NCBI GenBank assembly: GCA_964586355.1
Contig: CAZPGO010000019.1
Location: 5,345-37,344 of the forward strand
From: an uncultured archaeon
Lineage (GTDB): Archaea > Iainarchaeota > Iainarchaeia > Iainarchaeales > CSSED10-239
DNA length: 32,000 bases
Direction of reading: 5' to 3'
A program made the position numbers and the translations under genes. This document shows, in pieces, positions 6,002 to 32,000 of this stretch. The notes beneath the pieces are model-generated. The model was not told the DNA's origin. It ran no database searches and saw only the letters and a list, made by a program, of their open reading frames with translations. Each line of letters starts with the position of its first letter. The stretch's first letter is position 1.

Positions 6002-6059
6002 ATCTTTTTTTAAAGAATACATGGTTTTCTTTAAAGTAAAAATTATAAAGGTGTAAAAT

Positions 6060-8550: not shown

Positions 8551-8567
8551 TATTTTTATATAAATAG
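8551..8567 (+). promoter_or_regulatory. Candidate TATA-box region for fusA
   Basis: TATTTTTATATAAATAG lies ~45-60 nt upstream of the ATG at 8610. fusA is separated from upstream genes by a 174-nt AT-rich spacer, so it probably has its own promoter. Confidence 0.3.
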
Positions 8568-8609
8568 AAACACAAAGGTGAAAAACAAAAAACAATTTAG
8601 GTGAAAAAA

Positions 8610-15723: not shown

Positions 15724-17247
15724 ATGAATGAATTTAAAAGAAAAATAAAGTTGCTAGATCATATTGTTTTAGAAGTAATAGAAAAAGAAAAAATACCATT
15801 AGTAGTATCCAATCAAAACTTTGCAGAAGCACACTCCAGAACTGTTGCAAGACTTAGTCAGAGTGCAAAATCTTTTGAGCAAATAGTAAAAGAGATATTA
15901 ACAGATGAGGGATTTGATAAAGAAAAGATTGGCAAATTCCATAAAGGAATAACTTTAGGAGTAGCACATCATTCTATAGAACAACATGGAAATGTTACTT
16001 TGTGTTTTGAAAACACAAGTATGCTTGTAACAAACAAATATTGTGAAAATAAAAGACTTGCTGCATACCTAGAAAAGTCTACAAGATATCAGGATTTTTC
16101 TAAGCCTTGTTATATTATTCCTAAGGAGTTTGATTTGCATGAAAATAGCGATCTTAAAAAAGAGTATGTTGAAACAATGGATTTTTTGTTTAGTACCTAT
16201 GCAATAATTTTGCCAAAAATAATTTCAAGAATAGAAAAGGAGTTAGAAAATAAGAATATTACTTTAGATCCAAAAAGTATTAGAAAAAAAGCATTTGATT
16301 CTGCAAGATATATATTGCCAGCAAGTGCTTATACCAATTTTGCAATTACTACAAATTCTCAGGTATTTAGATCTTTAATAGTAGATCTTTTATCAAATAA
16401 TATTACTGAATTTAATGAGATCGGAAAAGAAATGCAACAAGAACTAATTAAAGTATATCCAACACTTTTGGAAATGGAGACTTGTGTTATTAATAAAGAA
16501 AGAGAGAGGTTTAAAGATTCTTCTAGCAAAATAAATCCAATATCTTTAAATCCAAATAATAACAGTAATTTGAAGATAGATGATTTTGTTTTTGAAAATA
16601 TAGAAAATACAGTAAAAATTATAGAACACACAAGACACTCAGAAAAACTTTTAGTATATAATTATCTTTTAGATCTTGGGCATAGTGTTGATTATAGAGA
16701 AAATGAGGTCTTTTTAAATAATAATATTTTATCTAAAAAAGATTTAGAAAAATACCTAAAAGAAGCCTTTAACTTTGATTGTACCGGTTATAGACCACAT
16801 AGGGCTTTAGAGCTTGCAAACTATACCTTTGAAGGTATTGTTGATTTTGGTGCTTGGAGAGATCTTCATAGAAATAGAATGCTTACTTGGATAAGTAGTT
16901 TTGTTTCTCCAGAATATGGTTTTTCAATACCGGTGTTTTTGGAGGATTGTAGAGAAGAGTATCTTTTAGGTTTAAAAAAAGCCTATGGTTTTTGGACAAA
17001 ATTAATTAAAAGAGGATTTTCTAAGGAATTTTGTCAATATGTATGTCCATTAGCAACTAATGCTAAGATTTTGTATACCATAAATGCAAGAGAACTTGAT
17101 CATGTAAGTAAAACCAGAACTACAGAACACGCACATTTTTCATATAGATCTTTTGTTAATCAGTGTGTGTGTGAGGCTGAAAAAATAAACCCTGAAATTA
17201 TTAAGCATATTAAAAATTATTATAAAGAACCACATTCTTTTACATAA
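15724..17247 (+). CDS. thyX: Flavin-dependent thymidylate synthase-like protein with two tandem ThyX domains
   Basis: The C-terminal half has FGAWRDLHRNRMLTW (compare FVARQWFRHRIASY of T. maritima ThyX) and TINARELDHVSKTRTTEHAHFSYRSF (compare [26 protein letters not shown]). The N-terminal half has NKRLAAYLEKSTRY (compare RHRIASYNELSGRY) and ARYILPASAYTNFAITTN (compare ARIVLPLNLYTRFFWTVN). SD GGGAG upstream. Confidence 0.7.
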   Translation: MNEFKRKIKLLDHIVLEVIEKEKIPLVVSNQNFAEAHSRTVARLSQSAKSFEQIVKEILTDEGFDKEKIGKFHKGITLGVAHHSIEQHGNVTLCFENTSMLVTNKYCENKRLAAYLEKSTRYQDFSKPCYIIPKEFDLHENSDLKKEYVETMDFLFSTYAIILPKIISRIEKELENKNITLDPKSIRKKAFDSARYILPASAYTNFAITTNSQVFRSLIVDLLSNNITEFNEIGKEMQQELIKVYPTLLEMETCVINKERERFKDSSSKINPISLNPNNNSNLKIDDFVFENIENTVKIIEHTRHSEKLLVYNYLLDLGHSVDYRENEVFLNNNILSKKDLEKYLKEAFNFDCTGYRPHRALELANYTFEGIVDFGAWRDLHRNRMLTWISSFVSPEYGFSIPVFLEDCREEYLLGLKKAYGFWTKLIKRGFSKEFCQYVCPLATNAKILYTINARELDHVSKTRTTEHAHFSYRSFVNQCVCEAEKINPEIIKHIKNYYKEPHSFT

Positions 17248-18057: not shown

Positions 18058-18744
18058 ATGCCAAGAAATATAAAACAAAAACTAAAACCAATTACAAAGA
18101 GGATAGTTACCGGCATAGCTATAGGCGGGGTTACTTTAGGTAGCGGTATTGGTTATAAAAAAATTACAGATAAAAAAGCTTTTTTAAATGCTGAGAAGAA
18201 AGCAAATGAACAAAAAACCTATAATCCTTTTTATGATAAGTTTTTATCACTAAAAGTTGAAGAATTTAATAGATCTGCAAAGCCTAATGAGATATTTTAT
18301 TCTACTGGAAGAGAAATTTCTGTTTTAAGATTACCAAAAGGATTAACTAGGCCAAAGCTAGATCAGATCTATAATCTTTTGGCAGAAAAATCTAAAAAAG
18401 CTATATCTAAGATAATTGATCAAAAGGTAGAGGCTGTTAATAGGGAATTAAAAACAAATGCTGTTTTAAGAAAAAAAATTCTTTCCAGAGTAGGTGTTTT
18501 AGATTATAGAGTTTATCTTTTGTCTTTGCCTTTAGAAAAAGTAGAGCTAATTTTTAGAAAAGAGCTTAATTCTAATTTTTCTAAGGAAATAAGAAATATT
18601 TCTCCAGAAGTCTTAGATTCTTTAAAAAAAGATCTTAACAAAAGTCTTGAAGGCTCCATAGTTACAAGCTCTTTAGTTTTGTTTTTAACATCAGCAATTG
18701 CTGCACAATTATTTGGCAAAAAAAAAGAACTAGATTTTAGGTAG
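18058..18744 (+). CDS. Membrane protein with one N-terminal and one C-terminal TM segment, unknown function
   Basis: Hydrophobic segments IVTGIAIGGVTLGSGIG and IVTSSLVLFLTSAIAAQLF. 228 aa. Same orientation as upstream genes, 24 nt gap. Confidence 0.5.
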   Translation: MPRNIKQKLKPITKRIVTGIAIGGVTLGSGIGYKKITDKKAFLNAEKKANEQKTYNPFYDKFLSLKVEEFNRSAKPNEIFYSTGREISVLRLPKGLTRPKLDQIYNLLAEKSKKAISKIIDQKVEAVNRELKTNAVLRKKILSRVGVLDYRVYLLSLPLEKVELIFRKELNSNFSKEIRNISPEVLDSLKKDLNKSLEGSIVTSSLVLFLTSAIAAQLFGKKKELDFR

Positions 18745-18831: not shown

Positions 18832-19092
18832 ATGAAAAAAACAAAAAAAGAAATTGAAGAAAAAATACAAAAAATAAAACCATTTTTTGAACAACTAACT
18901 TTTTTTTTTATAGGTTTAATTTGGTTTATTGTTGTGGATTCTTTAGTTGTCCTAAATACCATATTTAGATACACAGTATTAGTTTTATTTACTGGGTGGG
19001 CTTTTAGTTTATTATTACAAGAAGCATATATCTATAATTTATTTAGACCAATTATACTAAATAAGAAATGGGACAAATTAGTTAAAAAATAG
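18832..19092 (+). CDS. Small membrane protein (two predicted TM helices)
   Basis: 86 aa. Hydrophobic stretches LTFFFIGLIWFIVVDSLVVL and VLVLFTGWAFSLLL. Confidence 0.45.
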   Translation: MKKTKKEIEEKIQKIKPFFEQLTFFFIGLIWFIVVDSLVVLNTIFRYTVLVLFTGWAFSLLLQEAYIYNLFRPIILNKKWDKLVKK

Positions 19093-19106: not shown

Positions 19107-19610
19107 GTGATTAAAAGAGCAGTTTCTCCAATAATTAGTGTGATTTTACTTATTTTGGTTGCTGTTATTTTAATAACAATGTTTTTGTTATGGGCAAAGG
19201 TAGAAATAAAAGAAGATCTTCAAAGCTCTAGTGATGCTTTAAGTCCTGCTAGTGATATTGATTGTCTAAATTATAGCTTATCAGTAGACTCTTGTTTGAT
19301 TTACTCTTCTTCAAAAAAAGTTGAGGTTCTTTTAACAAATGCAACATCAATAAGATATTTTGATATCATGTTAACAATAGAAGCAGAGAACCTATCAGAA
19401 GCAAAAGAAAAATGGGTTGGTGTTTTTTCAAATGCATTATTTCCAGGACATAGCAAATTATATAATACTGATACAAATTTCTTATTTACAAAAAAAGAGA
19501 ATTTTACAAATCTAAATTTTAATGAGATCTCTAATATTATTTTAACTAATGGGGCTTGTAAAAGAGAGATCATTAATCTAATTAATATGTGTGAGATTAT
19601 TAATGAATAA
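19107..19610 (+). CDS. Archaeal type IV pilin-like protein (class III signal peptide, DUF1628-type N-terminus)
   Basis: MIKR/AVSPIISVILLILVAVILITMFL matches the archaeal prepilin pattern (K/R, then A, then VSPVIGVIL...). GTG start. The C-terminal domain has 4 Cys and is paralogous to the next gene. Confidence 0.6.
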   Translation: MIKRAVSPIISVILLILVAVILITMFLLWAKVEIKEDLQSSSDALSPASDIDCLNYSLSVDSCLIYSSSKKVEVLLTNATSIRYFDIMLTIEAENLSEAKEKWVGVFSNALFPGHSKLYNTDTNFLFTKKENFTNLNFNEISNIILTNGACKREIINLINMCEIINE

Positions 19611-20100
19611 AAAAGCTTTATCACCAATAATAAGTGTTATTTTAATAATTTTAGTTGCTGTTATATTAATTACTATGTTTTTAACATGGTCAAAGGAATA
19701 TTATAATAATCAGTTAACCAACACTACTGAGCAGCTAAAACGAGCATCAAGTATTGAGTGTGCTAATTCTAAATTAAAAGTTTCTTCTTGTTCTTTTGAT
19801 TCTTTTACTAAGGAGCTTTCTTTATTTTTAATAAATGATTCACAAATAAGATATTTTGATTTTACTTTAACTATAGAAGGAGTTGATCAAACATCTCAAG
19901 AACCAGTTAGACTTTATGGTGTTTTTAATCATATATTGGAGCCAGGAGCTTCTATCAATCTTTTAACAGATAGCAACTTTTTGGTTTTAGATTCTTCTGG
20001 TAATTATGAAAATTTAGATCTAAATAGTGTTTCTCTAATTAACCTAAGTAACGGTGCTTGCAAAAACCAGAACTTTGTTTTAGTGTGTTCTGTTGACTAA
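19603..20100 (+). CDS. Archaeal type IV pilin-like protein, paralog of 19107-19610
   Basis: MNKK/ALSPIISVILIILVAVILITMFL. It shares IRYFD..LTIE and NGACK motifs and the Cys pattern with the upstream gene. ATG 19603 overlaps the upstream stop (AATGAATAA), which suggests translational coupling. Confidence 0.65.
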   Translation: MNKKALSPIISVILIILVAVILITMFLTWSKEYYNNQLTNTTEQLKRASSIECANSKLKVSSCSFDSFTKELSLFLINDSQIRYFDFTLTIEGVDQTSQEPVRLYGVFNHILEPGASINLLTDSNFLVLDSSGNYENLDLNSVSLINLSNGACKNQNFVLVCSVD

Positions 20101-21045
20101 TTATTTTGAAATGTTTGAAATATCATCAATAATAAAACCACTAGCCTTAGGGTGTCCATTACCACCATATTTTTTAGCAATTATTGAACAGTCTACACTT
20201 TTAGATCTTAGGCTTATCTTATCAAAGTATTCTGGTTTTTCTTTGTTTAGGTAATATCTATACCAAATAATAACTAGTTCTATATCTTTATAATCTTCAG
20301 AATTAAAAATATGTTCAGAGATATATCCAGGTTTTATTTGTGAATTTACTATAAATGTCTTAATTCCTTCAAAATGTGTTTTTTTACCACTAGATATATC
20401 GTCAAAAACTTTTATTTTTAAATATTTATTTATTATTTTTCCAAAATCAATAAATTTTTCTGAATTTTTTTTAAAGTAATTATTATCAAAGAAACTTAAG
20501 AATTCTTCTATTATATCAAACGACTTTTCTTTATTTTTTTTTAATGACATGTATAAAAGATCTAAATATTGTAATATCTCTTTAGAATCTGGTAATTGCC
20601 ATTTCCAGATATCCATATCTTCTACATATTGTGAAAATAAAGGGGGTTCTTTGTTAAAATATTTCCAAACAAGAACAGCTGCAGAGTTGTTATGATCTCT
20701 TAATCCACTAATTTCTTGATCTGTGTATTCTTTTATAACATTTTTGTGATGATCTATCCAAATCATATTTTTATTATATATTTCTAAGAATTTTAACATT
20801 GTTTTTTTATCAAAACAGTAATCTAGTATTATAACATTTGTAAAAAAAGAAAGATCTATACTCTGTATTTTTAAGTTAGTAAAGATATTTTCAACACCAT
20901 AGCTTACTTCATAAAAATAATATTCTTTTCTTAGGGTCTTATAGTCAGGCCTCTTTAAATGATTTTGCATATAATCATTATAAGCATATCCTAAAGCAGA
21001 AATAAGCCCATCTAAATCATTGTGGTAAAAAATAATTGTGTTCAT
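20101..21045 (-). CDS. DHH/DHHA1-family phosphoesterase (NrnA-like nanoRNase / pAp phosphatase type)
   Basis: Motif I FYHNDLDGLISA, DHH motif IWIDHHKN, DHHA1 motif GGNGHPKASGF. 314 aa. Its stop abuts the pilin stop (convergent, 0 nt gap). Confidence 0.85.
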   Translation of the reverse strand: MNTIIFYHNDLDGLISALGYAYNDYMQNHLKRPDYKTLRKEYYFYEVSYGVENIFTNLKIQSIDLSFFTNVIILDYCFDKKTMLKFLEIYNKNMIWIDHHKNVIKEYTDQEISGLRDHNNSAAVLVWKYFNKEPPLFSQYVEDMDIWKWQLPDSKEILQYLDLLYMSLKKNKEKSFDIIEEFLSFFDNNYFKKNSEKFIDFGKIINKYLKIKVFDDISSGKKTHFEGIKTFIVNSQIKPGYISEHIFNSEDYKDIELVIIWYRYYLNKEKPEYFDKISLRSKSVDCSIIAKKYGGNGHPKASGFIIDDISNISK

Positions 21046-21311
21046 TTTTTGTTCGTGCTCCTACAAATATATTTATTTTTAGTTGTTTTTATATATGTTT
21101 GTTTTTTATTTTAGAGTTGTTTTTGCACAATATCTTGGACAAGCCAACTTTTTTTAAAACAAAAAATAGGCATTTAAAAATAGATCCCCGTTTTTAACAA
21201 AAATTACTGATCTAAAAGATCTTACAATATATTTATATTTGTTTTTTAGAATAAGTAGTATAATAATGTTAAAAAATTAACTATGCTTATTTATCTTTGG
21301 AGATCTTATTT

Positions 21312-24300
21312 ATGAAAAAATTATTTTTGTTGTTTTTTTTAATACTTAACCTATCTATGGTATTTAGTCTGACTCCTAATTTCTTTAATAAAGTTAACTA
21401 TTATGATCAAATTATTGATGTTGGTGTTTTAGATAATAACCTTTCAGGAGATTTCTTAAAAATAACACTCTCAGATCAATATGAAACTTATTTTGAAGAG
21501 GCTTTTTCTATTAAAAATAGTAAAAAAATAGATGTTGTTTTTGATAGCTCTGTTTCTTCTTATCTTGTTGCAAACTATGAGGTTTTGGATTCTAATTATT
21601 CTATATTAGAGACCTATTCTTTTCCTTTATTTTTAGAGAGTATAGATCTTGGCAGAATTTTTTTGTGTGATATAAAAGAATGCCATTATTCTGATTCCAA
21701 AAAATATTTTGATAATAGTTCTAAAATCTACCTTAATGTTGATAATAATTTAGATGTTAATTATTCTCTTGATCTTTTTTTAAAAGAAGGAAAAAATTAT
21801 AAACTTTTATTTTCTGAAAGCACACATGTATTTCCTTATTTCTTAGCTATTGATGATTCTGGTTCTTATAAGCTGGTTTTAAGTTATTATTTTGAAGATC
21901 TAATTTTTACTAAAAAAACTTTTTTTGAGATTGGGTCTCTAGAGCCAATTTCTTCTGATAGTTTTTCTGAGAGTAATATTGTATATTCTGATTTTGTGGA
22001 TAGTAATTTAACAGAACCTGTTATAAATAAAAATACTTCTAATGATTCAAATACATTATCAGAGAAAAATTATTTTTTTCAAAATTCAAAAAATATTTTA
22101 GCTTTGCTCTTTATATCTATTATTTTAATTTTGATTTTAATAATTTTATTTACAAGTAAAAATAAAAGATCAAGACATAGAAAAATAGCTTCTTTTTTTG
22201 TAGTTTTTTTTATTTTTTTTAATCTAGGATCTGTTTTTGCAGAATCTGAAAACGTTGTGACTTTGGAAGGTAGTACAAAACTTAATGAGATATTTACTTA
22301 TTATAGAACCCTAAATGCAGCATCTAAAGACATAGTTTTTTCTTTTGAAATTAATGAAAGTCTAGAAGCTAATGACACTTTACTAGATAATTACCAGATT
22401 ATACCTTCTGATGTAGACGACATTTTTAGAGAACCGATATTAGATTTAGAATATTCTAATAGATTTTTAGATTTTGCTGAAATTTATTCTTTGGAAAACA
22501 GATTAGAAACTGTTTATTTTTTTAATATTAATAAAAGTAATTCTACAGAGTATATAAATAATTCTTGTTTTGAAAATATTAGTAATTATTATAAAAGCAT
22601 AGATTTTTTTGGTCAAACAAATATAATAAACGAACAAGAAACTATAAGACAGCTTTTTTTGCCAAGAACTAAACCATATATTGAATCAGAGCTAGAAAAG
22701 TTTGGAGATTCTGATTTTATTAATGATTGTTTTAATTTTTTATTAACTGAAAAAATACTTGTTCCCTATGATATTTTATTATATACAAAAGTGGAGCTAA
22801 AAAACATACCAAAAAATTTTGAGCTTTATATGTCTATTGAAACAATTAATTTTGAACCTCCTTTTTTAACAACAAAAAAACCATTGGATATATTAGTTTC
22901 TTTTAAAAGAACCCCAATAGTTATAGAATCTAGTTATTCTATGCCCTATAACTGCGATAAAGAAAATCTTAGTTATTGTTATATTAATAATTCTGACTTT
23001 GATTCAATTAAATATCTATCAGATACTGGTAGTATAGCAAGTCCAGAGTTTTATAAAAGAATGGATGATTATGCAAGTTATCTTAATAATTTTGATTTAG
23101 TAAAAGATCTATATAGAAAAGAGGTTGATGGAGTTAACATTAAAGATCTGCTCTCCTTTGCAGCAATTAATAGAGAAAATCTTTGTTTTTCTAATGAAAA
23201 AAGAGAATATAATGAATTAATTTTTGATGTAGCAAAGGCCTACAATTTTACAGACGAGCAAGCTTTACAGTTTTGGGCTTTGATTGCTGAGAGATCTAAC
23301 TGTGATATTAATTATGATGATGTTGATAATGATTTGCTTGGTCTTGCACAAATAGATTTAGAGGCATATTATAATCAGTATATTGATCTACATGCTTCTA
23401 TGCATCCATTTTTAAAAGAAGAAGAGTATCTTCAGTATTTAGTTTTAGGAGACTTTAAAGAAATAAATGAAAAAAATATAGCAAAATTTGATGCTGATAA
23501 AGTTATTAGATTTGGTGGGCTTTCTAGTAAAATAAGTAATATGTACTGGTATTATGAATTTCTTATAAAAGCAATAAAAAATAGTAAAGATAAATACGGG
23601 TCTTTAGTTTTGTTTGCAGGAACAGATTATTTAAAAGAAATGACTACTCTTGTTAATTTTTGTGAGAAGTATTATACAGATAACTATCTTGAAAATATCT
23701 ATTATGATTATGAATCTTTTGTGACAGATAATTTAAAAAAAAACTTAAGAAGCATTTTTGTTCTAAGTAGTTTACTGGATAAAAAAGAGTTCTCTTTTAC
23801 TGAAGAGATATGTAAGTATACTGGGGAGCCTGAGTCTATAGTTATGGAATATCCAATAATATATACAAATCTAACTGGCAATTATTGTATAGATAATGGA
23901 TTTGTGCCATCTGTTAATTATCCTAGATACAAAAAAATAGACGGTGTTACTTATCATGGAACTGGTGCTTTACTATATAAATGTGAGGATAATAAGATAT
24001 ATAGCTGTATTCCAGGAACAGAGATCATACAAGAAGTAAGTGGATCTGCAGTAAATATACTTAAAGAAGAGCTTTGTTCTAGAGAGCTAATTCTAAAAGA
24101 AAAAAGAGTTAAGATTTCTAAAGAGTTTAAGGTTTTAATAAATTATCTTGCAATAAAGCACAAATATTTGACTAATAGAGAATATTTTGTTTCTAATGGT
24201 TTTTTAGAAGACTCTTCTAATGACTCAAAGAAATTTCTTGAAAATAAAACAAATTATTTTAAATTGAAATATGATTATTTTGATATTAAAAAAGAGAATT

Positions 24301-25112
24301 TTTTAGAGATCACTGCTGAAAAAAATATTTCTTTGTTAAAAAGAATTGATCCAAATTATTATTTTGCAGAGATTTTACAAAATAGAAGAAGTTTAGCCTA
24401 TGCAAGGTCTGGTAACTGTGCTCAGTTTGTTAGAGAAATTGGAACAAATCTTTTTACTTCAGAGCTTTATCCAAGAGCAGGAGTTTCTGCTGCTTGGTTA
24501 TATGATACTACTCCAACAGTAAAAGAGAGATATAATTTAATTTGGGAATCTCCAATTGTTTGTTATAGTAAACCAGGAAACAGAAAATTACCAAGAAGTC
24601 GTTGTGTTGAGACCCCAGAAGTACAAAGTCCTACTTTAGATTTAGATCTGTTGCCTGATGGTGCGATCTTAGGTCTTTATGTTTGTAAACAAAGTCATGG
24701 GTCTTTAAGAAATCTAGAGTATACACATGTTGGGACCTATATTGGCAAAGATCAACTAGGTCATCATTTGTTTATACATATGGGTAATTCTAGATCTATA
24801 GAGATAATAAGTGAATATACCTCTCACATATGTAGTTCTGGGTATAATAGGCAAATAATGAGAGTCTATGTCCCAAAATCCACAGGAATAACTAGTATGG
24901 ATCAATTAAGGGAATTAAAAGAAAAAGATTTATTACAACCAGTTACCTGGATTAAAGATATTAACGAAGTTATAAATAGATCAAATGGACTAGAATATCC
25001 TGAATTTGGTATTCAAGATGAAGAAGAAATGGATTCTTCTGAATATGAATCAGATGATTCAGAAAGCGAAGATGCAGATCTTGAAGAAAATGCAGAGCAA
25101 GAATCTGAATAA
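21312..25112 (+). CDS. Large (1266 aa from ATG 21312) secreted, membrane-tethered protein with an SLT-like lytic-transglycosylase motif, an NlpC/P60- or CHAP-like cysteine-peptidase motif and an acidic C-terminal tail
   Basis: N-terminal signal peptide MKKLFLLFFLILNLSMVFS. TM hairpin at nt ~22094-22243. FWALIAERSNC...DLLGLAQIDLEAY (nt ~23270-23360) resembles the SLT E-S...GLMQ motif. SGNCAQFVREIG...LPDGAILGLYV...YTHVGTYIGKDQLGHHLFIHMGN (nt ~24410-24790) resembles NlpC/P60 or CHAP Cys...His blocks. The tail is DEEEMDSSEYESDDSESEDADLEENAEQESE. The CDS call is solid. Domain calls are about 0.45. Confidence 0.75.
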   Translation: MKKLFLLFFLILNLSMVFSLTPNFFNKVNYYDQIIDVGVLDNNLSGDFLKITLSDQYETYFEEAFSIKNSKKIDVVFDSSVSSYLVANYEVLDSNYSILETYSFPLFLESIDLGRIFLCDIKECHYSDSKKYFDNSSKIYLNVDNNLDVNYSLDLFLKEGKNYKLLFSESTHVFPYFLAIDDSGSYKLVLSYYFEDLIFTKKTFFEIGSLEPISSDSFSESNIVYSDFVDSNLTEPVINKNTSNDSNTLSEKNYFFQNSKNILALLFISIILILILIILFTSKNKRSRHRKIASFFVVFFIFFNLGSVFAESENVVTLEGSTKLNEIFTYYRTLNAASKDIVFSFEINESLEANDTLLDNYQIIPSDVDDIFREPILDLEYSNRFLDFAEIYSLENRLETVYFFNINKSNSTEYINNSCFENISNYYKSIDFFGQTNIINEQETIRQLFLPRTKPYIESELEKFGDSDFINDCFNFLLTEKILVPYDILLYTKVELKNIPKNFELYMSIETINFEPPFLTTKKPLDILVSFKRTPIVIESSYSMPYNCDKENLSYCYINNSDFDSIKYLSDTGSIASPEFYKRMDDYASYLNNFDLVKDLYRKEVDGVNIKDLLSFAAINRENLCFSNEKREYNELIFDVAKAYNFTDEQALQFWALIAERSNCDINYDDVDNDLLGLAQIDLEAYYNQYIDLHASMHPFLKEEEYLQYLVLGDFKEINEKNIAKFDADKVIRFGGLSSKISNMYWYYEFLIKAIKNSKDKYGSLVLFAGTDYLKEMTTLVNFCEKYYTDNYLENIYYDYESFVTDNLKKNLRSIFVLSSLLDKKEFSFTEEICKYTGEPESIVMEYPIIYTNLTGNYCIDNGFVPSVNYPRYKKIDGVTYHGTGALLYKCEDNKIYSCIPGTEIIQEVSGSAVNILKEELCSRELILKEKRVKISKEFKVLINYLAIKHKYLTNREYFVSNGFLEDSSNDSKKFLENKTNYFKLKYDYFDIKKENFLEITAEKNISLLKRIDPNYYFAEILQNRRSLAYARSGNCAQFVREIGTNLFTSELYPRAGVSAAWLYDTTPTVKERYNLIWESPIVCYSKPGNRKLPRSRCVETPEVQSPTLDLDLLPDGAILGLYVCKQSHGSLRNLEYTHVGTYIGKDQLGHHLFIHMGNSRSIEIISEYTSHICSSGYNRQIMRVYVPKSTGITSMDQLRELKEKDLLQPVTWIKDINEVINRSNGLEYPEFGIQDEEEMDSSEYESDDSESEDADLEENAEQESE

Positions 25113-25127
25113 AAAAAGAAAAAAAAA

Positions 25128-26588
25128 TTAATTTTTTTCCACATTAAAAGCATTTTCTATTTCTTTTGGTTTTTTTGAGAAAAAGTCTATTGCTTCTTTT
25201 AGTTCTATATGCTCTTTTGCATATTCCTCAATTGAGATGCCCTTTTTATAAGCCTCACATGCCAAAACTAAAGCCCTTGACCCTGACCGTGTTCCTTTTG
25301 GATGAGCATGACACCCTGCACCCATAGTGGTTATAAAATCTATTGACCCCATAACATCTATAAACGGTTTTAGTAATGTAGGGTTAAGACCACCAGACAC
25401 TATTGGTGCACACTTTTTTACTCCTCTCCAAGAGTCGTCTTTTAGGATAATGTGGCCAATTCTGTCTTCTTGAACCATTTTTAAAGCATCTTTGTCATCT
25501 TCAGGTATTTTTGACCAAGATTGATCAAAGAAATGTCCTGTTGCTGAAAAATCTAAAATACCGTCTGCTGCGGTTATATCTTCTTTAGGTGTTCCTTCCA
25601 TTTTACCAACACCAGCAGTTCCTGTATGTATTCCGGATGCTCCCGCTAATCTTGCAAATTTAGATAAAACTAGAACAGAGAAACCAAATGCATTTTCTGG
25701 TCTTGTAAATGCTCCATGTGCTGCTCTATGGAAGTGTATAAATACATTTGGATATTTTCTTCTTAAGGTTTGAACAGCCATCCACCCAGCAGTAATTCCA
25801 TCAATTAAGAACGCATAAGATCCCTCTTCAAAGCCAGCATTTCTGATCATCTCACATCTATTGATCATGGTCTCAAAATCAGAAGCAGAAACATTAAATG
25901 AATGAACTTTTTTTTGTCCTGTTTCTTTTACTGCTTTATCCATAGCTTCTTTTACATGTTTAACCATCTTTTCATAAGGGCAAAAATCTTGATCTGCTTG
26001 TGGCTCATCATTCTTAACGAAATCGCCTCCACCAACCCAAAAATCATAGCACACTTCTGCATATTCTGCACTTGTTAGTCCCATTTTTGGTTTTACTATT
26101 GTTCCTAATATTGGTCTATCATAAACTTGTAAATAATTTCTCATATCGTCAAGAGTGTAACTAGGTCCATCAAATTGTTCTAACATTGCTGGAGAGAACC
26201 AAACATCTAATAGTTTTAGAGCTGATACTTCTTTCATGCCTAGCACATTTCCAACAACATAGGTTAAAATGTTTTGAACATTTCCAATCCTGTCAAACAA
26301 TCTCCATGGAAAAGCTATCCAGACAAGATTTTTTTCTTGATCTAGTTTGTATACTAAAGCATTCATTTCTCTGGAAAATGCTGTTTCAGTATTTACCTTA
26401 AAATTAGTTCCTGTTGATGATTCTGCTGCAACCTCTGCTGCTGCTTGTAAGATGTTTAATGATCCTCCTGGAACTAAATGGAATATTCCTAACATATATT
26501 CTCCATTTTTTTCATTTGGGATCTCAAAATTTACATAAGCTTTTTGTTTATCATTTAGTGTTTCGTATAATTCTTTTTCTGTTAACAT
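25128..26588 (-). CDS. rbcL: Ribulose-1,5-bisphosphate carboxylase/oxygenase large subunit, form II/III-like
   Basis: TIVKPKMGL, GGGDFVKNDEPQ (form II-type context), HFHRAAHGA, GIHTGTAGVGKMEG, PIVSGGLNP and MGAGCHAHP are all present. 486 aa, with an extra segment between QSW and the SGG loop. Confidence 0.93.
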   Translation of the reverse strand: MLTEKELYETLNDKQKAYVNFEIPNEKNGEYMLGIFHLVPGGSLNILQAAAEVAAESSTGTNFKVNTETAFSREMNALVYKLDQEKNLVWIAFPWRLFDRIGNVQNILTYVVGNVLGMKEVSALKLLDVWFSPAMLEQFDGPSYTLDDMRNYLQVYDRPILGTIVKPKMGLTSAEYAEVCYDFWVGGGDFVKNDEPQADQDFCPYEKMVKHVKEAMDKAVKETGQKKVHSFNVSASDFETMINRCEMIRNAGFEEGSYAFLIDGITAGWMAVQTLRRKYPNVFIHFHRAAHGAFTRPENAFGFSVLVLSKFARLAGASGIHTGTAGVGKMEGTPKEDITAADGILDFSATGHFFDQSWSKIPEDDKDALKMVQEDRIGHIILKDDSWRGVKKCAPIVSGGLNPTLLKPFIDVMGSIDFITTMGAGCHAHPKGTRSGSRALVLACEAYKKGISIEEYAKEHIELKEAIDFFSKKPKEIENAFNVEKN

Positions 26589-26723
26589 TTCTTTTCCTCC
26601 ATAAAATAATATAGATAAGAAGTAAGAAGTCTTTATATATTTTTGTTTTTTTTCTAAAAATGTAGATTAGATATTTAAATATTTCTATCTTATATTATTA
26701 ATAGTAAAAAAATTACTAATTTT

Positions 26724-26742
26724 ATTGTTGTTTAACAACAAT
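26724..26742. promoter_or_regulatory. Perfect 9-bp inverted repeat ATTGTTGTT-t-AACAACAAT in the divergent rbcL / Cys-rich-gene intergenic region
   Basis: Read directly. All 9 arm positions pair. It lies 136 nt upstream of the rbcL start (minus strand) and 53 nt upstream of ATG 26795. Confidence 0.25.
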
Positions 26743-26794
26743 TAAAATATTTGCCTTTTAAAAAAATCTAAAAAAATGGAGTGTGTTTATAGGT

Positions 26795-27109
26795 ATGAAT
26801 AAAAAAGCTTTATTGATAATTATTGGTATAACCCTACTATTAAGTACTTTTGTGCTATTCTCAAAAGTTAGTGCTAAAGAGGAAGCTGTTTTTAAGGAGC
26901 TAAGAGTATTAAGATCTTCTTTAGTAAGTAGTAATCTTAATCAAACCCCAAGTTATTTTGATAAAGTAAGATGTACTTGTAATGGTGAATCTTGTGGAAG
27001 TTCTTTTGATAGTAATCCTAACGTACAAGCTGGCAACTTAATAGTTTATTGTGCACAATTGTGTTCTTGTAGATCTCATGTTGGGTTTACTTATGAAACA
27101 GAGGAGTAA
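26795..27109 (+). CDS. Small secreted Cys-rich protein
   Basis: MNKKALLIIIGITLLLSTFVLFSKVSA/KEE is a signal-peptide-like N-terminus. The ~75-aa mature part has 7 Cys (CTCNGESC...YCAQLCSC). I prefer ATG 26795 over GTG 26783. Confidence 0.5.
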   Translation: MNKKALLIIIGITLLLSTFVLFSKVSAKEEAVFKELRVLRSSLVSSNLNQTPSYFDKVRCTCNGESCGSSFDSNPNVQAGNLIVYCAQLCSCRSHVGFTYETEE

Positions 27110-27145
27110 GATATATTTATATATTCTTTTATTAACTATTTTTTT

Positions 27146-28591
27146 ATGTTTTTAAAAAAATATTCTTTTTTAATCTTAATATTTTTATTTATTTTACACT
27201 CTGTATCAGCAGATTCTGTACTTTTTAATGTTTCTAATTCCACAGAAGCTTCTTTTTTAAATTATCAAACAAAAATAGACCTTAACAGTTCTTTACCTGC
27301 TGATTTTAATTGGGATAATTTAGGTAAAGATCTTTATTTTCAATATAACGATGGTAATAATATTCCTTTTTGGATAGAATCTTGGAATAATTCTGAGCAA
27401 GAAGCAGAAATTTGGTTAAAGATCTCTATTAACCCAGAATCAGAAATAATAGTTAAGATGTTTTATGATGGTGAGTCAGATCTTTCTTTAAGTAATGGTG
27501 ATGCTGTTTTTATTTTTTTTGATGATTTTGAGGAAAATAAAATTATTAATTATTCTCCTACTGGGTTAATAAATGCAGATCAAAATTTAAATATTCCTAC
27601 TTATGATGGAAGTGGTCAAAATGTTCATCCCTCTTTAGTATATTTTGAAGAACCTTTTAATAGTTGGAAATATTGGATGGCAATTACTCCATATGCAGAT
27701 AGTAATGAGGATCTAGAAAACCCTTCAATTGTTGTTTCTAATGATGGAAATACTTGGCAAATACCAGAAGGTCTAACAAACCCTATTATTCCATATCCTG
27801 GTGGTCAAGAGTTTAATTCTGATCCAACTTTATTTTATGATGGAAACAAATTTGTTTTATATTATAGAGAAGGATGTAATATTACAGTTAATGGAGATAA
27901 AATAAAATATGTTTATTCTTATGATGGTATAGAATGGTTACCAAAAGACGACACTGAAATTAATCCTATATTGGTTTTAGAAAAGGCTCAAAATCAATTA
28001 ATTGCACCAACGATTATATTTAAAGATGATATTTATTATATGTGGGTTGTGGAAGTTGATACAGATAATCCCCCATCAAGATTAGTAAGATATAGTTCTG
28101 ATGATGGGATTAATTGGGAAGATGTTGCTCATCCAAAAATAAATACTAATATTTCTGGCTTTGTTGATAATAATTTGCATATTTGGCATCCAGAAATAAA
28201 ATATATTCCTGAATTTCAAGAATATTGGATGATAACATCAGCATACCCTTATGACTATGGTGTTGGAACATCTTCTGATACTTATTTTGCAAGAAGTGTT
28301 GATGGTATTAACTGGACTGTCTATACTGATTACAAATTACTTGCAAAAAAGTTAGGTTCTTGGGATAGTAGAGGAATATATAAATCAACATTTTTATTTG
28401 ATGAAACAACAAACAAAATCAGAGTTTGGTATTCTGCAACAAAAACAGGATTTCCTATTTTGTGGAATACTGGTTATACTGAAGAAGATTATAATTTAGT
28501 TTTAAAAAGATTAGATAGTAATTTAGTAAAATGGCATTTTTCAATCAAGGTGCACAAGGTGCAACAGCTAATATTTCTTCAGGGGTTATAG
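27146..28591 (+). CDS. Secreted protein: DUF2341-like domain followed by a beta-propeller glycoside-hydrolase-like domain. Probably the N-terminal part of a frameshifted larger gene.
   Basis: Signal peptide MFLKKYSFLILIFLFILHSVSA. IPFWIESWNNSEQEAEIWLKISI is typical of DUF2341. NVHPSLVYFEEPFNSWKYWMAITPYADSNEDLENPSIVVSNDGNTW and repeated W/DG motifs resemble five-bladed propeller GH-like proteins. The last ~17 aa look like out-of-frame read-through. Confidence 0.65.
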   Translation: MFLKKYSFLILIFLFILHSVSADSVLFNVSNSTEASFLNYQTKIDLNSSLPADFNWDNLGKDLYFQYNDGNNIPFWIESWNNSEQEAEIWLKISINPESEIIVKMFYDGESDLSLSNGDAVFIFFDDFEENKIINYSPTGLINADQNLNIPTYDGSGQNVHPSLVYFEEPFNSWKYWMAITPYADSNEDLENPSIVVSNDGNTWQIPEGLTNPIIPYPGGQEFNSDPTLFYDGNKFVLYYREGCNITVNGDKIKYVYSYDGIEWLPKDDTEINPILVLEKAQNQLIAPTIIFKDDIYYMWVVEVDTDNPPSRLVRYSSDDGINWEDVAHPKINTNISGFVDNNLHIWHPEIKYIPEFQEYWMITSAYPYDYGVGTSSDTYFARSVDGINWTVYTDYKLLAKKLGSWDSRGIYKSTFLFDETTNKIRVWYSATKTGFPILWNTGYTEEDYNLVLKRLDSNLVKWHFSIKVHKVQQLIFLQGL

Positions 28592-31029
28592 AGCTCCAAG
28601 CAAATCCAGATTCTGATTCTAGTTCAAATATCAGAAGTTCTAAAAACATAATAACAAACAATATAATTGTTGAAGTAAAACAGAAAATAACAGATGATTT
28701 TTATGTTAATACCTCAATAGGTGATCTTTCAACTAATGGGGATTTGTGTTATAGTGCTACTAATCCTGACAATTATTGGAATACCTTTCTTTGTTATGGG
28801 TATCTTTTTGGAGGGTGGAGTTCAAAATTTAATTTATATCGTATGATTGGAAATGGAGAGAAAATTCCATTAAATAATCCTCCATCTGTTTCTCAACAAA
28901 CACACATTTTTTCAAAAACAAAATATGTTTATACAGCTAATGGGATTACAAAATGGTATTTAAATAATGAATTAAAAACAACGGGGTCTGCTGATATAGA
29001 ATATTTAAATACAAACAAATATTTGTTATTATCTCAAGGAGGGCATAATACTGGAGCAGGAGGAACAAGAACAATTGATTATGTTTTTGTTAGAGAATTT
29101 TCTGATGTTGACTTAAATATTGTTAATTTAGACGAACAAATTTCTTCAAATGTTATTTTTAACATTTTAAATTATGATCACAATTGGATTAATCAAGATA
29201 TTAGTTTAAATTTTGTTGTTGATAATAATAGTAGTTTAGATTATAATTTATTTTATAGAATAGATCTTTCTAATTGGCAACCATTTGTATTTGAAAATGA
29301 ATTATTATTTAATAGTGATGGAAATTATCAAATTGATTTTTATGCAAGAGATAATAGCTTAGATTTTAATGAATCAATTAATACTGTTTTTGTAGCAATT
29401 GATAAAACAGAGCCCATAATTACTGAAATAGATAACAACGGTGTTTGGTTTACAGAAGACTTTAATATTTCTTTTGATGTTAATTTTGATATTTCTGGCA
29501 AGTCTGAAGCAAAATATAAATTGAATGACTCTGAGTCTTGGGTCGATTTTACAGATGGCTATGATATTTTAATTGATGTTGATGGCAACAACACTATTGA
29601 TTACTATTTTAGAGACTTTGCAGGAAATGATACCAACGGAACTGTTTATGGTTTATTGGATAAGAGCTCTCCAGTAATCCACTCTATAGACAATAACAAC
29701 ATTTGGTTTACAGAAGATTTTAATATTTCTTTTGATGTTAATTTTGATATTTCAGGTAAGTCTGAAGCAAAATATAAATTGAATGACTCTGAGTCTTGGG
29801 TCGATTTTACAGATGGCTATGATATTTTAATTGATGTTGATGGCAACAACATTATTGATTACTATTTTAGAGACTTTGCAGGAAATGATGCCAACGGAAC
29901 TGTTTATGGTTTATTGGATAGTATTACTCCAGTAATAATTGATCAAAATTGGACTTCTCCAGTAAATAATTATTCTTTTTCTACAACTACTTTAACTTTA
30001 TCTGGGAGATTTACAACAAGTGATGTTAATAAAGAAGACCTCTCTCTAATTTCTAATGTTTTGTTTTCTATAAACAATAATGACTGGATAGAAACTAATC
30101 TAGATTATTATTCAGAAACAAATCTTTATTCTTGGACTTATACTTATACACACAATTTTAGTCAAACTACTGATTTTAATGTTTATCTTAAATATCAAGA
30201 TCTTGCTGGAAATGATTCAAATGTTCTTACTAGAGCTATAACCTATACAAAATCCAACAACCCCCCTTCCGGTGGTGGAAGATCTGGAGGCTCTAGTTTT
30301 ATTTATGTGCCATCTGGATCTGATTCAACAGATGACCATGAATCAGAAAGCAATCTTTTAACAATTACAAATAAAGAATCTGATTCTAATTTAGTAAATA
30401 ATTCTGTTAATGTTTCTTTTGTTTTAGATAATGTGGTTAATTCACAAAAAAAGAATTTAGATGATGTTATTTCTAAAAAAAATATTTCTAAAGAAATAAA
30501 AATAGATAGAATCATAAAAACAGATAACATTCCTGTATTTTCTTTAGAAATTAGAAATGATTCTCCACAATCTTATAAAGATCTATCTATTATAGAAGTT
30601 ATTCCTAAAGAAATAATTGATCATATTGATAATTTAGTATTTTCCATAGAACCAACAAATATTATCAATCCAGATCCAATAGTTGAATGGAAGATAAATG
30701 AACTAGAAAGCGGAGGTTTTTTTAAGATAAACTATGCTTTAAAAGAAGATAAAAATATTGATTATTCTGTATTCTCAAAATGGCAGTTGCCTTTGATATT
30801 TGCAGAAGATTTTTTAGATGTGGATTCTAATTATCAAGATATAGAGCCAGTAGTTGAAGTTTTGAAAAAAGAAGTTGTTTTAGATGATCCAAATAAAAAA
30901 ATAACTCCTATTTATGATATTAAAGAAAAAAATATTTTGTCTTGGTTAGGTATTTTTTCTATAATAATATTACTATTTTTTATTATTTTTAATAATAGAC
31001 CTAAAAACAAAAAAAGTTCAAGAAAATGA
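28531..31029 (+). CDS. Surface protein: LamG/ConA-like jelly-roll, four Ig-like domains with D-x-AGND motifs, a Gly/Ser linker and a C-terminal TM anchor. It lacks its own signal peptide.
   Basis: GATANISSGVIELQA...TIDYVFVREF is typical of the LamG domain that follows DUF2341. Repeated ...YYFRDFAGND / YARDNS / YQDLAGND modules. Linker PPSGGGRSGGSS. C-terminus ILSWLGIFSIIILLFFIIFNNRPKNKKSSRK. Confidence 0.65.
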   Translation: MAFFNQGAQGATANISSGVIELQANPDSDSSSNIRSSKNIITNNIIVEVKQKITDDFYVNTSIGDLSTNGDLCYSATNPDNYWNTFLCYGYLFGGWSSKFNLYRMIGNGEKIPLNNPPSVSQQTHIFSKTKYVYTANGITKWYLNNELKTTGSADIEYLNTNKYLLLSQGGHNTGAGGTRTIDYVFVREFSDVDLNIVNLDEQISSNVIFNILNYDHNWINQDISLNFVVDNNSSLDYNLFYRIDLSNWQPFVFENELLFNSDGNYQIDFYARDNSLDFNESINTVFVAIDKTEPIITEIDNNGVWFTEDFNISFDVNFDISGKSEAKYKLNDSESWVDFTDGYDILIDVDGNNTIDYYFRDFAGNDTNGTVYGLLDKSSPVIHSIDNNNIWFTEDFNISFDVNFDISGKSEAKYKLNDSESWVDFTDGYDILIDVDGNNIIDYYFRDFAGNDANGTVYGLLDSITPVIIDQNWTSPVNNYSFSTTTLTLSGRFTTSDVNKEDLSLISNVLFSINNNDWIETNLDYYSETNLYSWTYTYTHNFSQTTDFNVYLKYQDLAGNDSNVLTRAITYTKSNNPPSGGGRSGGSSFIYVPSGSDSTDDHESESNLLTITNKESDSNLVNNSVNVSFVLDNVVNSQKKNLDDVISKKNISKEIKIDRIIKTDNIPVFSLEIRNDSPQSYKDLSIIEVIPKEIIDHIDNLVFSIEPTNIINPDPIVEWKINELESGGFFKINYALKEDKNIDYSVFSKWQLPLIFAEDFLDVDSNYQDIEPVVEVLKKEVVLDDPNKKITPIYDIKEKNILSWLGIFSIIILLFFIIFNNRPKNKKSSRK
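29428..29943 (+). repeat. Tandem duplication of a 258-nt (86-aa) Ig-like module. The core copies at 29446-29662 and 29704-29920 are nearly identical.
   Basis: Direct comparison shows about five substitutions across the ~217-nt core (gac/gat, tctggc/tcaggt, act/att, acc/gcc). The period is exactly 258 nt, in frame. Confidence 0.9.
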
Positions 31030-31098: not shown

Positions 31099-31605
31099 AT
31101 GAATGATTTATTAAAAATAAAATTTAGGTTTGTAGGTAATAAGCCAATTAAGAAAGCTGCATTATTAAATAGTACTCTTTGTATTTATTTAAATGAAGGC
31201 AAGTCTTTTTTGATTGCTAAAGAAAATAGATCTGTTTTTGAGTTTATGTTAAATTCAGGGAATAAAAAAGAGCAACAAAAATTTATAAAACTATTAAATA
31301 ATAATTCTTTTTATGAGTTTATTGGATCTGTTTCAAAAATAGAGATCTATTCTAAATTATTTGCTAATTTTAATAATTCAGAAAAATTTAAAGCTATAGA
31401 AAAGGTCTTTGTCCATTTTGAGAGGTGGTCTGCTGGTGATGTAAAACAAAAAAAAAAGATTTTAGCTTCTTTTTCTAAGGGTTTAAAAGAATCTATTTTA
31501 AGAAGATATGTGGAATCTTTAGAAATAAAGCATATAAAATCTAATCCAACTCCTAGATCTAAACCGATAAAACCTGTTGCGCCAATTAAACCAAAGATCA
31601 AATAA
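31099..31605 (+). CDS. Hypothetical protein with a Pro/Lys-rich C-terminus
   Basis: ORF from ATG 31099 (the upstream TTG 31042 would add a poly-Phe leader). C-terminus is NPTPRSKPIKPVAPIKPKIK. No family recognised. Confidence 0.4.
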   Translation: MNDLLKIKFRFVGNKPIKKAALLNSTLCIYLNEGKSFLIAKENRSVFEFMLNSGNKKEQQKFIKLLNNNSFYEFIGSVSKIEIYSKLFANFNNSEKFKAIEKVFVHFERWSAGDVKQKKKILASFSKGLKESILRRYVESLEIKHIKSNPTPRSKPIKPVAPIKPKIK

Positions 31606-31800
31606 TTTTTTTATTTTTTGATCTTGTTCTTTTTCATTATTTCTTGGACGATTTTTTTAGTTAAGTATTTAAAGTTAGTTTATTATTTAATAAACTATTT
31701 AAATAATAAATTATTTAAATAATCTTTTAATTAAACTACTCTATTTAAAAATATATAGTTCTTTCTTTTTAATAATCATTAAACGGAAAAAATAGGTGAT

Positions 31801-32000
31801 ATGATGGGAGTTATTACGATATCAATGGATGATAGGTCTGAAAAGCTTTTGCGAGATATGGCAAAAGCTAAGTATGGAAATAAAAAAGATGCAATAAGTA
31901 AAACAATTGTTGAGACTATTTCTGAAAAAGAAAATAAAAGATTAGAAGCAATTGAGCATTTAAAATATATGATGACCAATCCTTTAAAGTTTGGAAAAGG
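31801..32000 (+). CDS. Ribbon-helix-helix (CopG/antitoxin-like) protein. Partial, runs off the window.
   Basis: My own translation is MMGVITISMDDRSEKLLRDMAKAKYGNKKDAISKTIVETISEKENKRLEAIEHLKYMMTNPLKFGK, with no stop before nt 32000. The beta-strand (VITISMD) plus two short helices fit an RHH fold. GGTGA lies just upstream. It is not in the supplied ORF track, presumably because it is open-ended. Confidence 0.45.
   Translation, partial: MMGVITISMDDRSEKLLRDMAKAKYGNKKDAISKTIVETISEKENKRLEAIEHLKYMMTNPLKFGK

Follow-up and report, generated by a model that had tools for sequence, protein, structure and literature searches.

Gene content of the 12-kb stretch

We analyzed a 32-kb stretch of DNA from an uncultured archaeon (contig CAZPGO010000019.1), and the whole stretch is referred to here as the window. 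The analysis was focused on positions 19107 to 31029 and, in particular, on the gene in this 12-kb part that encodes a 1266-aa exported protein (21312-25112, plus strand; identical to protein P0001). A first-pass annotation, which was made from the sequence alone, had presented the 12-kb part as a candidate module for host attachment and for breaching the cell wall of another organism.

Two overlapping pilin-like genes (19107-19610 and 19603-20100, both plus strand) were located at the start of the 12-kb part. They were followed by a gene for a DHH/DHHA1 phosphoesterase on the minus strand (20101-21045; Pfam DHH 29 bits, DHHA1 weak), the gene for the 1266-aa protein, a gene for the large subunit of a form II/III-like RuBisCO on the minus strand (25128-26588; Pfam E 1e-88; NCBIfam PRK13475, 625 bits), a gene for a small, secreted Cys-rich protein (26795-27109, plus strand), and a DUF2341 gene that was split into two open reading frames (ORFs; 27146-28591 and 28531-31029, both plus strand). 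The phosphoesterase, a cytoplasmic protein with no hydrophobic segment, and RuBisCO were housekeeping proteins and were placed outside the surface set. The earlier count of six exported gene products out of eight held only when the split gene was counted twice; otherwise, the count was five out of seven. Thus counted, the enrichment in exported genes was modest (p ~0.03, under an assumed rate of ~30% exported genes).

The window had a GC content of ~27%, and a Pfam scan located the archaeal markers rpoB, split rpoA'/A'', L30e, S12, S7, and EF-2 at 37-10808 in their usual archaeal order, which bore out the earlier view that the organism is an archaeon. A metagenome-assembled genome named 'Candidatus ainarchaeum sp.' encoded a near-identical RuBisCO and a 55 to 58% identical ortholog of the 1266-aa protein. 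The source organism is a DPANN-type archaeon; we take the name of the relative to mean Ca. Iainarchaeum (phylum Iainarchaeota, kingdom Nanobdellati).

The 1266-aa protein as a fusion of an anchor and an effector

The 1266-aa protein was exported and membrane tethered, as the first-pass annotation had proposed; it had an N-terminal signal peptide and two further hydrophobic segments. The first part of the protein, which we call A, consisted of the signal peptide (residues 4-19), an outside domain of ~240 aa, and transmembrane (TM) segment TM1 at residues 262-280 (together 21321-22151, plus strand, as are all features of this gene). The second hydrophobic segment (residues 292-310; 22185-22241) followed the basic sequence KNKRSRHRK, ended in VFA/ES, and resembled a signal peptide. 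The remainder, which we call B, began with a conserved domain of no assigned function (22242-23111) that had no Pfam match and was common to the short NlpC/P60 proteins P0117 and P0118 (profile matches, positions 5-267). Further downstream were a helical module with an SLT-like motif (23169-23681) and an NlpC/P60-like (papain-fold) module (24369-24956). Among orthologs, conservation peaked at residues 641-680 and 1081-1160, which corresponded to the two modules flagged in the first-pass annotation.

Homologs of residues 1-280 were found as stand-alone A proteins of ~300 aa (signal peptide, domain, and C-terminal TM segment) in loci L001, L002/L013, and L015. The stand-alone A genes in L001 (3588-4508, 7101-7970, and 15383-16327) and L002 (10650-11615) each preceded a B-type gene. 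Stand-alone B proteins had their own signal peptide at the start, followed by homology to residues ~311-1225 of the 1266-aa protein. The stop and start codons of separate A and B genes overlapped four times in L001 and L002 and once in L015. Because separate, homologous A and B genes were present in L001, L002/L013, and L015, we read the 1266-aa protein, like its orthologs P0002 to P0006, as a fusion of a two-gene cassette composed of an anchor (A) and a secreted effector (B).

Residues 292-310 would then be the former signal peptide of B, which may now form the second arm (TM2) of a hairpin or a cleavage site. With the old B signal peptide retained as the second hydrophobic segment, all of B, ~950 residues, is predicted to be outside the cell, either tethered by the TM hairpin or released by signal peptidase.

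The most extensive set of cassettes was found in L001. Within 17 kb, this locus contained a pilin-like gene, A, B (858 aa), A, B (493 aa, with a canonical NlpC/P60 domain), a PIN gene, a fused AB gene (P0006), one other gene, A, and B (1242 aa), in this order. The pilin-like gene overlapped the first A-B cassette.

The family proved to be very rare and is not recognized by standard models (Pfam, NCBIfam, and PHROGs); together with the anchor-plus-effector organization of the cassette and the fusion of A and B in the window lineage, this is new. Six full-length relatives of the 1266-aa protein were found in a word-indexed search, and a further search of this type, which started from an alignment of 15 family sequences, brought up the six known orthologs and nothing else. 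An exhaustive profile search recovered 13 family representatives among 1.84 billion. One family locus was present among 185,579 GTDB species representatives, and two short family loci were present in Joint Genome Institute (JGI) metagenomes. There was no relative in IMG/VR (2.9 million viral contigs), and a viral origin of the 1266-aa protein was dropped on this ground. Relative to the sister lineage, the 1266-aa protein was 55% identical, compared with 93% for RuBisCO, 71% for the DHH protein, and 64 to 70% for the pilin-like proteins. Such fast evolution would fit a protein of the contact surface.

A divergent NlpC/P60-like module at the C-terminus

The first-pass annotation had noted an NlpC/P60- or CHAP-like signature in the C-terminal part of the protein. 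An alignment of this module from 11 members of the family was compared through hhalign with five NlpC/P60 domains that are significant in Pfam and come from the family's own paralogs and neighbors (the C-terminus of P0006, P0116, P0117, P0118, and a 1148-aa protein of L002). The score was 36.4 (64% probability, E 6.4e-5). Column shuffles scored 12.4±2.3 (maximum 21.4), reversed decoys scored 9.6 to 11.5, a profile of Escherichia coli lytic transglycosylases scored 10.7, and unrelated profiles overall scored 10.7 to 19. The aligned hallmark was LLPDGAILG…EYTHVGTYIGK…FIHMGN in the family module and L.PGDLLFL…FGHAAFYLGK…FIHASS in the canonical domains. In ortholog P0006, there was also a sub-threshold match to Peptidase_C92, which belongs to the permuted NlpC/P60 branch (20.6 bits versus 27). 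These comparisons provided moderate support for homology between the C-terminal module and NlpC/P60 domains.

Structural models were generated with AlphaFold2 (AF2). A first model of residues 311-1225, which was built from 6 sequences, was unusable (mean predicted local distance difference test [pLDDT] score of 36), and a deeper alignment was taken from the exhaustive search of representatives. The second model, which was built from 15 sequences, had pLDDT scores of 66 to 89 over the peptidase module. In this model, C1036 (in the sequence GNCAQFV; 24417-24419) was at the N-terminus of helix 1036-1047, H1139 (24726-24728) started a strand, and H1156 (24777-24779) was on the next strand. The modeled placement of this candidate triad appears to match the layout of papain and NlpC/P60 enzymes. 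The global alignment did not join the Cys motifs, and C1036 is thus only a putative nucleophile. The top PDB matches in a Foldseek search with the model were non-significant and included papain-like folds (staphopain and USP-type). In BFVD, the matches ranked 1, 2, and 5 were also non-significant and were named 'Peptidoglycan hydrolase', 'Hydrolase' (probability 0.94, E 0.13), and 'Tail associated lysozyme'. A permuted (YaeF-type) triad that used C1174 was considered and dropped, as this Cys was confined to orthologs and absent in paralogs.

The Cys, His, and His residues were intact in 8 of the 12 family members (P0001 to P0005, P0112, P0113, and P0122). Both His residues were invariant in the six orthologs, and the Cys was present in five of them. 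A Pro replaced the Cys in P0006 and in the P0114 to P0116 clade; in this clade, the third residue was Glu or Gln, and the His was changed to Gln in one case. The proteins that lacked the Cys contained additional domains. Specifically, P0006 and P0116 had an extra Pfam-significant NlpC/P60 domain at the C-terminus, and P0114 and P0115 had an extra C-terminal helical module with the canonical motif AESG…GxGQV. The added domains look like replacements of decayed modules, and this apparent decay and replacement of catalytic modules is a further new feature of the family. The nearest solved relatives of the paralogs' canonical NlpC/P60 domains were Spr/MepS and LytN, although the matches were weak (E 0.04-0.5).

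The module shared several features with the NlpC/P60 endopeptidases (PF00877, Spr/MepS) and with the permuted YaeF/YiiX branch (PF05708): the order of the motifs (L.PGD…-HVG.Y.G-…-IH), a Cys modeled at the start of a helix, two His residues modeled on adjacent strands, and the fusion of canonical PF00877 domains to paralogs in the family. In contrast to those enzymes, the module was under every curated hidden Markov model (HMM) threshold, had a Cys-to-His spacing of ~100 residues rather than ~50, contained extra Cys pairs, and was part of a 1266-aa membrane-tethered archaeal protein. The NlpC/P60 side of the earlier signature thus stood to the extent that the hhalign score was above the decoys, the triad was conserved, and paralogs had Pfam-significant domains, whereas the curated HMMs and PDB searches gave nothing for the window protein. 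We read the module as a divergent member of the NlpC/P60 type, with probable activity in the window protein.

The helical module

The helical module contained the motif A-E660-R-S662 (E660 to S662 at 23289-23297), followed 17 residues later by G677-L-A-Q680 (23340-23351). The Ser, Gly, and Gln of this SLT-like motif were invariant in all 12 modules of the family. In the AF2 model, E660-S662 was located at the C-terminal end of a helix, and pLDDT scores of 70 to 75 were reached only for residues ~20-60 of the module. More distant modules with the motif AESG[CA]…G[IV][AG]Q[IV] were found in P0119, P0120, and P0122 and as second copies in P0114 and P0115, and the window module was homologous to these modules (98.6% hhalign probability).

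The first-pass annotation had assigned this region to the SLT-like glycan-strand hydrolases, and the assignment was not supported: HMM, profile-profile, and fold searches yielded nothing significant, and the canonical Glu was displaced by one residue. Neither the window protein nor any of the 12 family modules matched SLT (PF01464), even at E <= 10. Pfam scans of each member at E <= 10 produced only chance-level matches (Phage_lysozyme2, 0.049, and Peptidase_C92, 0.0017), and Foldseek found no lysozyme-like match for the module. When the family profile was aligned via hhalign to five E. coli lytic transglycosylases (Slt70, EmtA, MltC, MltD, and MltF), the motifs were in register, but the probability was only 1.6 to 1.9% and the score was 20.6 to 20.9. 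The corresponding scores were 18 to 19 for unrelated real profiles, 11 to 13.5 for reversed decoys, and 13.7±2.6 (maximum 23.6) for block shuffles. A column-shuffle null that favored SLT (z ~7) was rejected as too lenient, given that unrelated profiles and block shuffles scored similarly.

A tblastn search with the P0119 module against 50,697 phage genomes gave a single match, a faint lead (E = 9 at the level of the database), in Caulobacter phage Quill_5.2. The match fell on a genuine SLT domain (PF01464, E 1.3e-8) at the N-terminus of a gp16-like internal virion protein, and the E-S pairs of the two sequences were aligned. A module with the canonical motif had no match in a tblastn search of plasmids.

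Compared with GH23/SLT domains (PF01464), the module was similar in that E-(x)-S ended a helix in the AF2 model, G-L-A-Q followed 17 residues on, and distant family modules had the canonical AESG motif. It differed in that the window copy had Arg or Lys at the canonical Glu position and that the third SLT motif (AYNxG) was not evident. We suggest that the SLT label describes a resemblance at the level of the motif only. Even with a lysozyme-like fold, the window copy may bind rather than cut.

Pilin-like genes, the small Cys-rich protein, and gene order

The two pilin-like proteins were paralogs, as previously annotated; they were 46% identical and both just reached the cut-off of 20 for TIGR02537, the NCBIfam model of the archaellin/pilin N-terminus (20.3 and 20.8 bits). 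Each had an N-terminus of the class III signal-peptide type, namely [KR][AG]/[VL]SPIIS followed by a hydrophobic stretch, which in the first protein read KR/AVSPIISVILLILVAV. Scores for the Pfam model Pilin_N (PF07790) were 19 bits for the first protein and 17.2 bits for the second, under the cut-off of 25.2. The second protein, whose start codon position was taken from the gene calls in L004, also had a weak match to UpsA. Orthologs of the first protein were 64% identical in L002 and 36% identical in L001. No pilus assembly genes (PilB/FlaI-type ATPase, PilC/FlaJ, or prepilin peptidase) were found among the Pfam matches of the 32-kb window.

The small Cys-rich protein (104 aa) had a signal-peptide-like segment, in agreement with its earlier description as a secreted protein, but it contained six Cys residues instead of the seven reported. 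It was conserved in L002 (71% identity), and its last 50 residues, which form the conserved C-terminal half, were nearly invariant.

The order of the genes for the pilin-like proteins, DHH protein, 1266-aa protein, RuBisCO, and Cys-rich protein was kept in close relatives, in which the large protein was 84%, 62%, and 55 to 58% identical. In the sister lineage (L002/L013), pyrI and pyrB (pyrBI) were inserted between the DHH gene and the gene for the large protein. There, the gene for the Cys-rich protein was followed directly by a gene for a 168-aa conserved protein with no export signal or assigned function (31099-31605, plus strand, in the window; 52 to 54% identical in L002 and L013), and then by an A-B cassette in which B ended in a canonical NlpC/P60 domain. 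The window, unlike the sister lineage, had no A-B cassette after the gene for the 168-aa protein.

In L002 and L013, the genes for the Cys-rich and 168-aa proteins had no DUF2341 gene between them. Because the gene was absent at this position in the sister lineage, we regard it as a lineage-specific insertion. The 12-kb part, which had been put forward as one module, was thus not a conserved unit: the DUF2341 gene was missing in the sister lineage, and the DHH and RuBisCO genes were located inside. A check of synteny upheld the order among close relatives and a link between a pilin-like gene and an A-B cassette in L001, but not the position of the DUF2341 gene. We consider it unlikely that the 12-kb part is a single system.

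An explanation that concerns the cluster alone, and is compatible with any reading of the 1266-aa protein, is that the grouping has no functional unity: the genes would have been inherited in this order, with a single insertion particular to the lineage, and the enrichment in exported genes would be coincidental. The gene order was confined to close relatives, so it may be simply inherited, and synteny was documented only within one narrow clade. Housekeeping genes were located within the stretch (DHH and RuBisCO, and pyrBI too in L002), and the closest DUF2341 homologs were found among housekeeping genes in other archaea. On the other hand, a pilin-like gene overlapped the first A-B cassette in the more distant L001, which means that this link recurred outside the close clade, and DUF2341 proteins have been tied to archaeal type IV pilus loci (PMC4858521). 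We consider the chances of this explanation to be evenly balanced.

A frameshifted DUF2341 gene

The last gene of the 12-kb part had been described as encoding a single protein of ~1300 aa with DUF2341, a beta-propeller of the glycoside hydrolase (GH) type, a Laminin-G domain, four Ig-like domains, and a C-terminal anchor. DUF2341, the propeller, and the anchor were found; the single ORF, the Laminin-G domain, and the Ig-like domains were not, and a link to GH130 was present only in homologs. The upstream ORF (27146-28591) and the downstream ORF (28531-31029) could be joined only by a -1 shift, or by a sixth T, at a run of five T nucleotides (28536-28540, plus strand). The joined product aligned to homolog P0007 with no break across the junction (47% identity over 657 residues). 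Because the same T run was present in L004 and L005, two independent JGI assemblies that were 99.85 to 99.9% identical to the window, the frameshift is a feature of the population and not an assembly error.

The upstream ORF of this split adhesin or glycan-binding gene contained DUF2341 (PF10102; 57.3 bits versus 23.4, E 2e-15) and a five-bladed-propeller-like part of ~280 residues (156-433) that was homologous to PDB entry 6n1a, deposited as 'carbohydrate-binding protein' (E 9e-29). The window copy of the propeller did not match any GH family. Among its homologs, P0024 matched GH130 (43.5 bits versus 26), and the matches of the others were sub-threshold. In the downstream ORF, a region resembling a jelly roll and repeated units of the beta-sandwich type were accompanied by a TM anchor at the C-terminus (residues 1264-1282 of the fused product), and there was a sub-threshold match to an OmpL47-type barrel (30 bits versus 40). 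For the putative Laminin-G domain, there was no Pfam match at E <= 1 and no PDB sequence match over fused residues ~450-665; neither Pfam nor PDB sequences supported the four Ig-like domains. Duplicated beta-sandwich units were encoded by a 258-bp tandem repeat at 29444-29920 (plus strand; 1.8 copies, 97% identity). In L004 (~18100-18400), this repeat region was 53 nt shorter, and the DUF2341 gene was called as three ORFs. The difference in length was due to either variation in repeat number or an artifact of short-read assembly.

A DUF2341/propeller gene of a different archaeon (P0008, 43% identical; L019, 5300-5440) was also split into two overlapping ORFs. In this case, the split was at a run of five G nucleotides inside the propeller, and the direction of the shift was opposite to that in the window. 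One of the samples with the L019 contig also contained the population of the window. That frameshifts arose twice, independently, at homopolymers of homologous surface genes suggests phase variation or ongoing decay. Programmed frameshifting was considered and dropped: the split in P0008 was at a different homopolymer and in the opposite direction, and therefore points to mutation rather than to a conserved recoding signal.

Homologs with DUF2341 were present in Patescibacteria and in archaea. In archaeal type IV pilus loci, DUF2341 proteins have been proposed to be tip adhesins (PMC4858521), and DUF2341 has been noted in giant surface proteins of Patescibacteria (PMC11809585). The window gene resembled these in having a significant DUF2341 match, a large size, a C-terminal anchor, and a location near pilin-like genes. 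Unlike them, it was split by a frameshift, was not beside pilus assembly genes in the window, and carried a propeller related to PDB 6n1a and GH130.

Proposed function of the 1266-aa protein

The reading that we favor, tentatively and at slightly less than even chances, is that the stretch is a surface-gene patch of a DPANN archaeon, with two housekeeping genes interspersed, in which the fused A-B protein is the core and its peptidase module cuts the wall of a partner cell. Specifically, at sites of cell-cell contact, the peptidase module would cleave the stem peptides or cross-links of another cell's wall, for which bacterial murein is the most plausible candidate. The role of the helical module would be to bind the glycan strand or perhaps to cut it; with the canonical Glu displaced, binding seems as likely as catalysis. 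Attachment would come from the pilin-like proteins. It would also come from the DUF2341/propeller adhesin if a frameshift restored this gene, which is an add-on specific to the window lineage. The sequence comparisons show the architecture of the 1266-aa protein, its origin by fusion, the relationships within the family, and the homology of the C-terminal module to NlpC/P60; the substrate, the activity, and a link to pili are proposals. The earlier idea of equipment that attaches to and opens the envelope of another cell thus kept its surface-rich stretch and a probable peptidase, but the lytic transglycosylase was not supported and a single module appears unlikely.

Several results weighed against this reading. 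Searches of the window protein with Pfam, NCBIfam, and PHROGs and against PDB sequences (phmmer and a six-sequence profile) revealed no SLT, NlpC/P60, or CHAP domain, and separate profiles of the helical and peptidase modules also found nothing among PDB sequences. The hhalign match of the peptidase module spanned only the C-terminal half that contains the two His residues, and the Cys motifs were unaligned in the global hhalign comparison. The AF2 model was only moderate (mean pLDDT 58.5), and a Foldseek search with it gave no match at E <= 0.001. In the case of the helical module, the score against lytic transglycosylases was no better than that of unrelated real profiles. The window subfamily reads A-E-[RKL]-S, with Arg, Lys, or Leu in the column of the canonical Glu; the Glu that precedes this column by one residue was invariant in the orthologs. 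Finally, the pilin-like genes were separated from the gene for the large protein by the opposite-strand DHH gene, plus pyrBI in the sister lineage, and the DUF2341 gene was frameshifted and non-syntenic.

Some of these results would be expected if the 1266-aa protein were a non-catalytic adhesin or envelope scaffold whose degenerate pseudo-enzyme modules grip the partner's wall or the cell's own surface layer. The displaced Glu in the helical module, the loss of the Cys in several family members, and the lack of an HMM-level match to any active hydrolase family are in line with this idea. In addition, the members that lost residues gained separate canonical domains, and the internal modules persist there with no catalysis. 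However, the Cys and both His residues were kept in the window protein and in seven other members, and loss of the Cys was accompanied by the change in the third residue in one clade. Moreover, conservation among orthologs was highest in the region that contains the His residues. We consider a non-catalytic protein to be unlikely.

A second question is the target of an active module. The protein might be an active papain-fold hydrolase with a target other than bacterial murein. Candidates are pseudomurein or a different isopeptide-linked polymer in an archaeal host, the partner's surface proteins, or the cell's own envelope during growth and division. Members of the NlpC/P60 superfamily act on varied substrates as amidases, peptidases, or acyltransferases; those DPANN archaea whose hosts are known live on other archaea; and nothing in the window indicated a bacterial partner. 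The paralogs' canonical NlpC/P60 domains were nonetheless closest to the murein endopeptidases noted above, if weakly, and the E-S…GxxQ motif and the top BFVD names also indicated peptidoglycan, again weakly. Most archaeal homologs of peptidoglycan hydrolases are found outside the clades that make pseudomurein (PMC12352652). A target of this other kind seems distinctly improbable to us.

Peptidoglycan hydrolases of archaea have been surveyed and studied in experiments (PMC12352652), and large GH23 proteins ('large lytic murein transglycosylases') in Woesearchaeota have been read as tools against bacteria (PMC9723730). The first-pass statement that the combination had not been characterized therefore applied to this particular family only; the idea of wall hydrolases in DPANN archaea was already in these two publications. 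The 1266-aa protein also resembled the virion-associated peptidoglycan hydrolases and tail lysins of phages, which combine lysozyme or SLT domains with CHAP or NlpC/P60 domains, in that glycan-directed and peptide-directed modules would be present on one large extracellular protein that acts from the outside. The top BFVD names for the window model, although non-significant, were of this kind. Unlike the phage proteins, the window protein was chromosomal, membrane anchored, and encoded beside core archaeal genes.

A broader interpretation, which is possible but rather doubtful, is that A-B cassettes serve certain DPANN archaea as a contact weapon that is specific to the clade, evolves fast, is present in multiple copies, and is genetically coupled to pilin-like proteins with class III signal peptides. 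The catalytic modules would decay to binding modules and be replaced by appended NlpC/P60 or ES-type modules, and the fusion in the window would have kept an active, divergent peptidase. If this were true, the cassettes would represent a previously unrecognized wall-breaching family that standard annotation does not see. DPANN archaea probably live on other cells, and how they breach the envelope of a partner has largely been deduced from a few annotated hydrolase genes. If the protein is active on murein or pseudomurein, the set of tools with which DPANN archaea interact with other cells would gain a new hydrolase family, and the substrate would hint at whether the host is a bacterium or an archaeon. 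An internal module that loses its catalytic residues while a canonical domain is appended would be a clear case of pseudo-enzyme turnover.

Other genes in the window

Scans of the window for tRNAs and Rfam families were empty. Upstream of the pilin-like genes was a conserved neighbor that encodes an 86-aa membrane protein with two TM segments (18832-19092, plus strand); it had a weak Pfam 2TM match and hydrophobic segments and was 74% identical in the sister lineage (L002).

A gene for a 242-aa Bro-N protein (7698-8426, plus strand; phrog_15286, E 1.6e-66) was located between the S7 and EF-2 genes of the archaeal str operon, and a 152-aa ORF of no assigned function (6796-7254) adjoined it. Together, the two look like a virus-derived insertion in a core operon. 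A 370-aa protein (11339-12451, plus strand) matched 1-deoxy-D-xylulose 5-phosphate (DXP) reductoisomerase in both its N-terminal domain (40.9 bits) and its C-terminal domain (27.8 bits). An enzyme of the methylerythritol phosphate (MEP) pathway is unusual in archaea, which make isoprenoids via mevalonate. The ThyX (Thy1) protein (15724-17247, plus strand) was 507 aa long, about twice the usual length, and had two matched stretches, which suggested that it may be tandem duplicated or fused. Lastly, an ORF that began with MMGVITISMDDRSEKLLRDMAKAKYG (31779-32000, plus strand) ran off the end of the window and looked like a small protein of the ribbon-helix-helix or antitoxin type.

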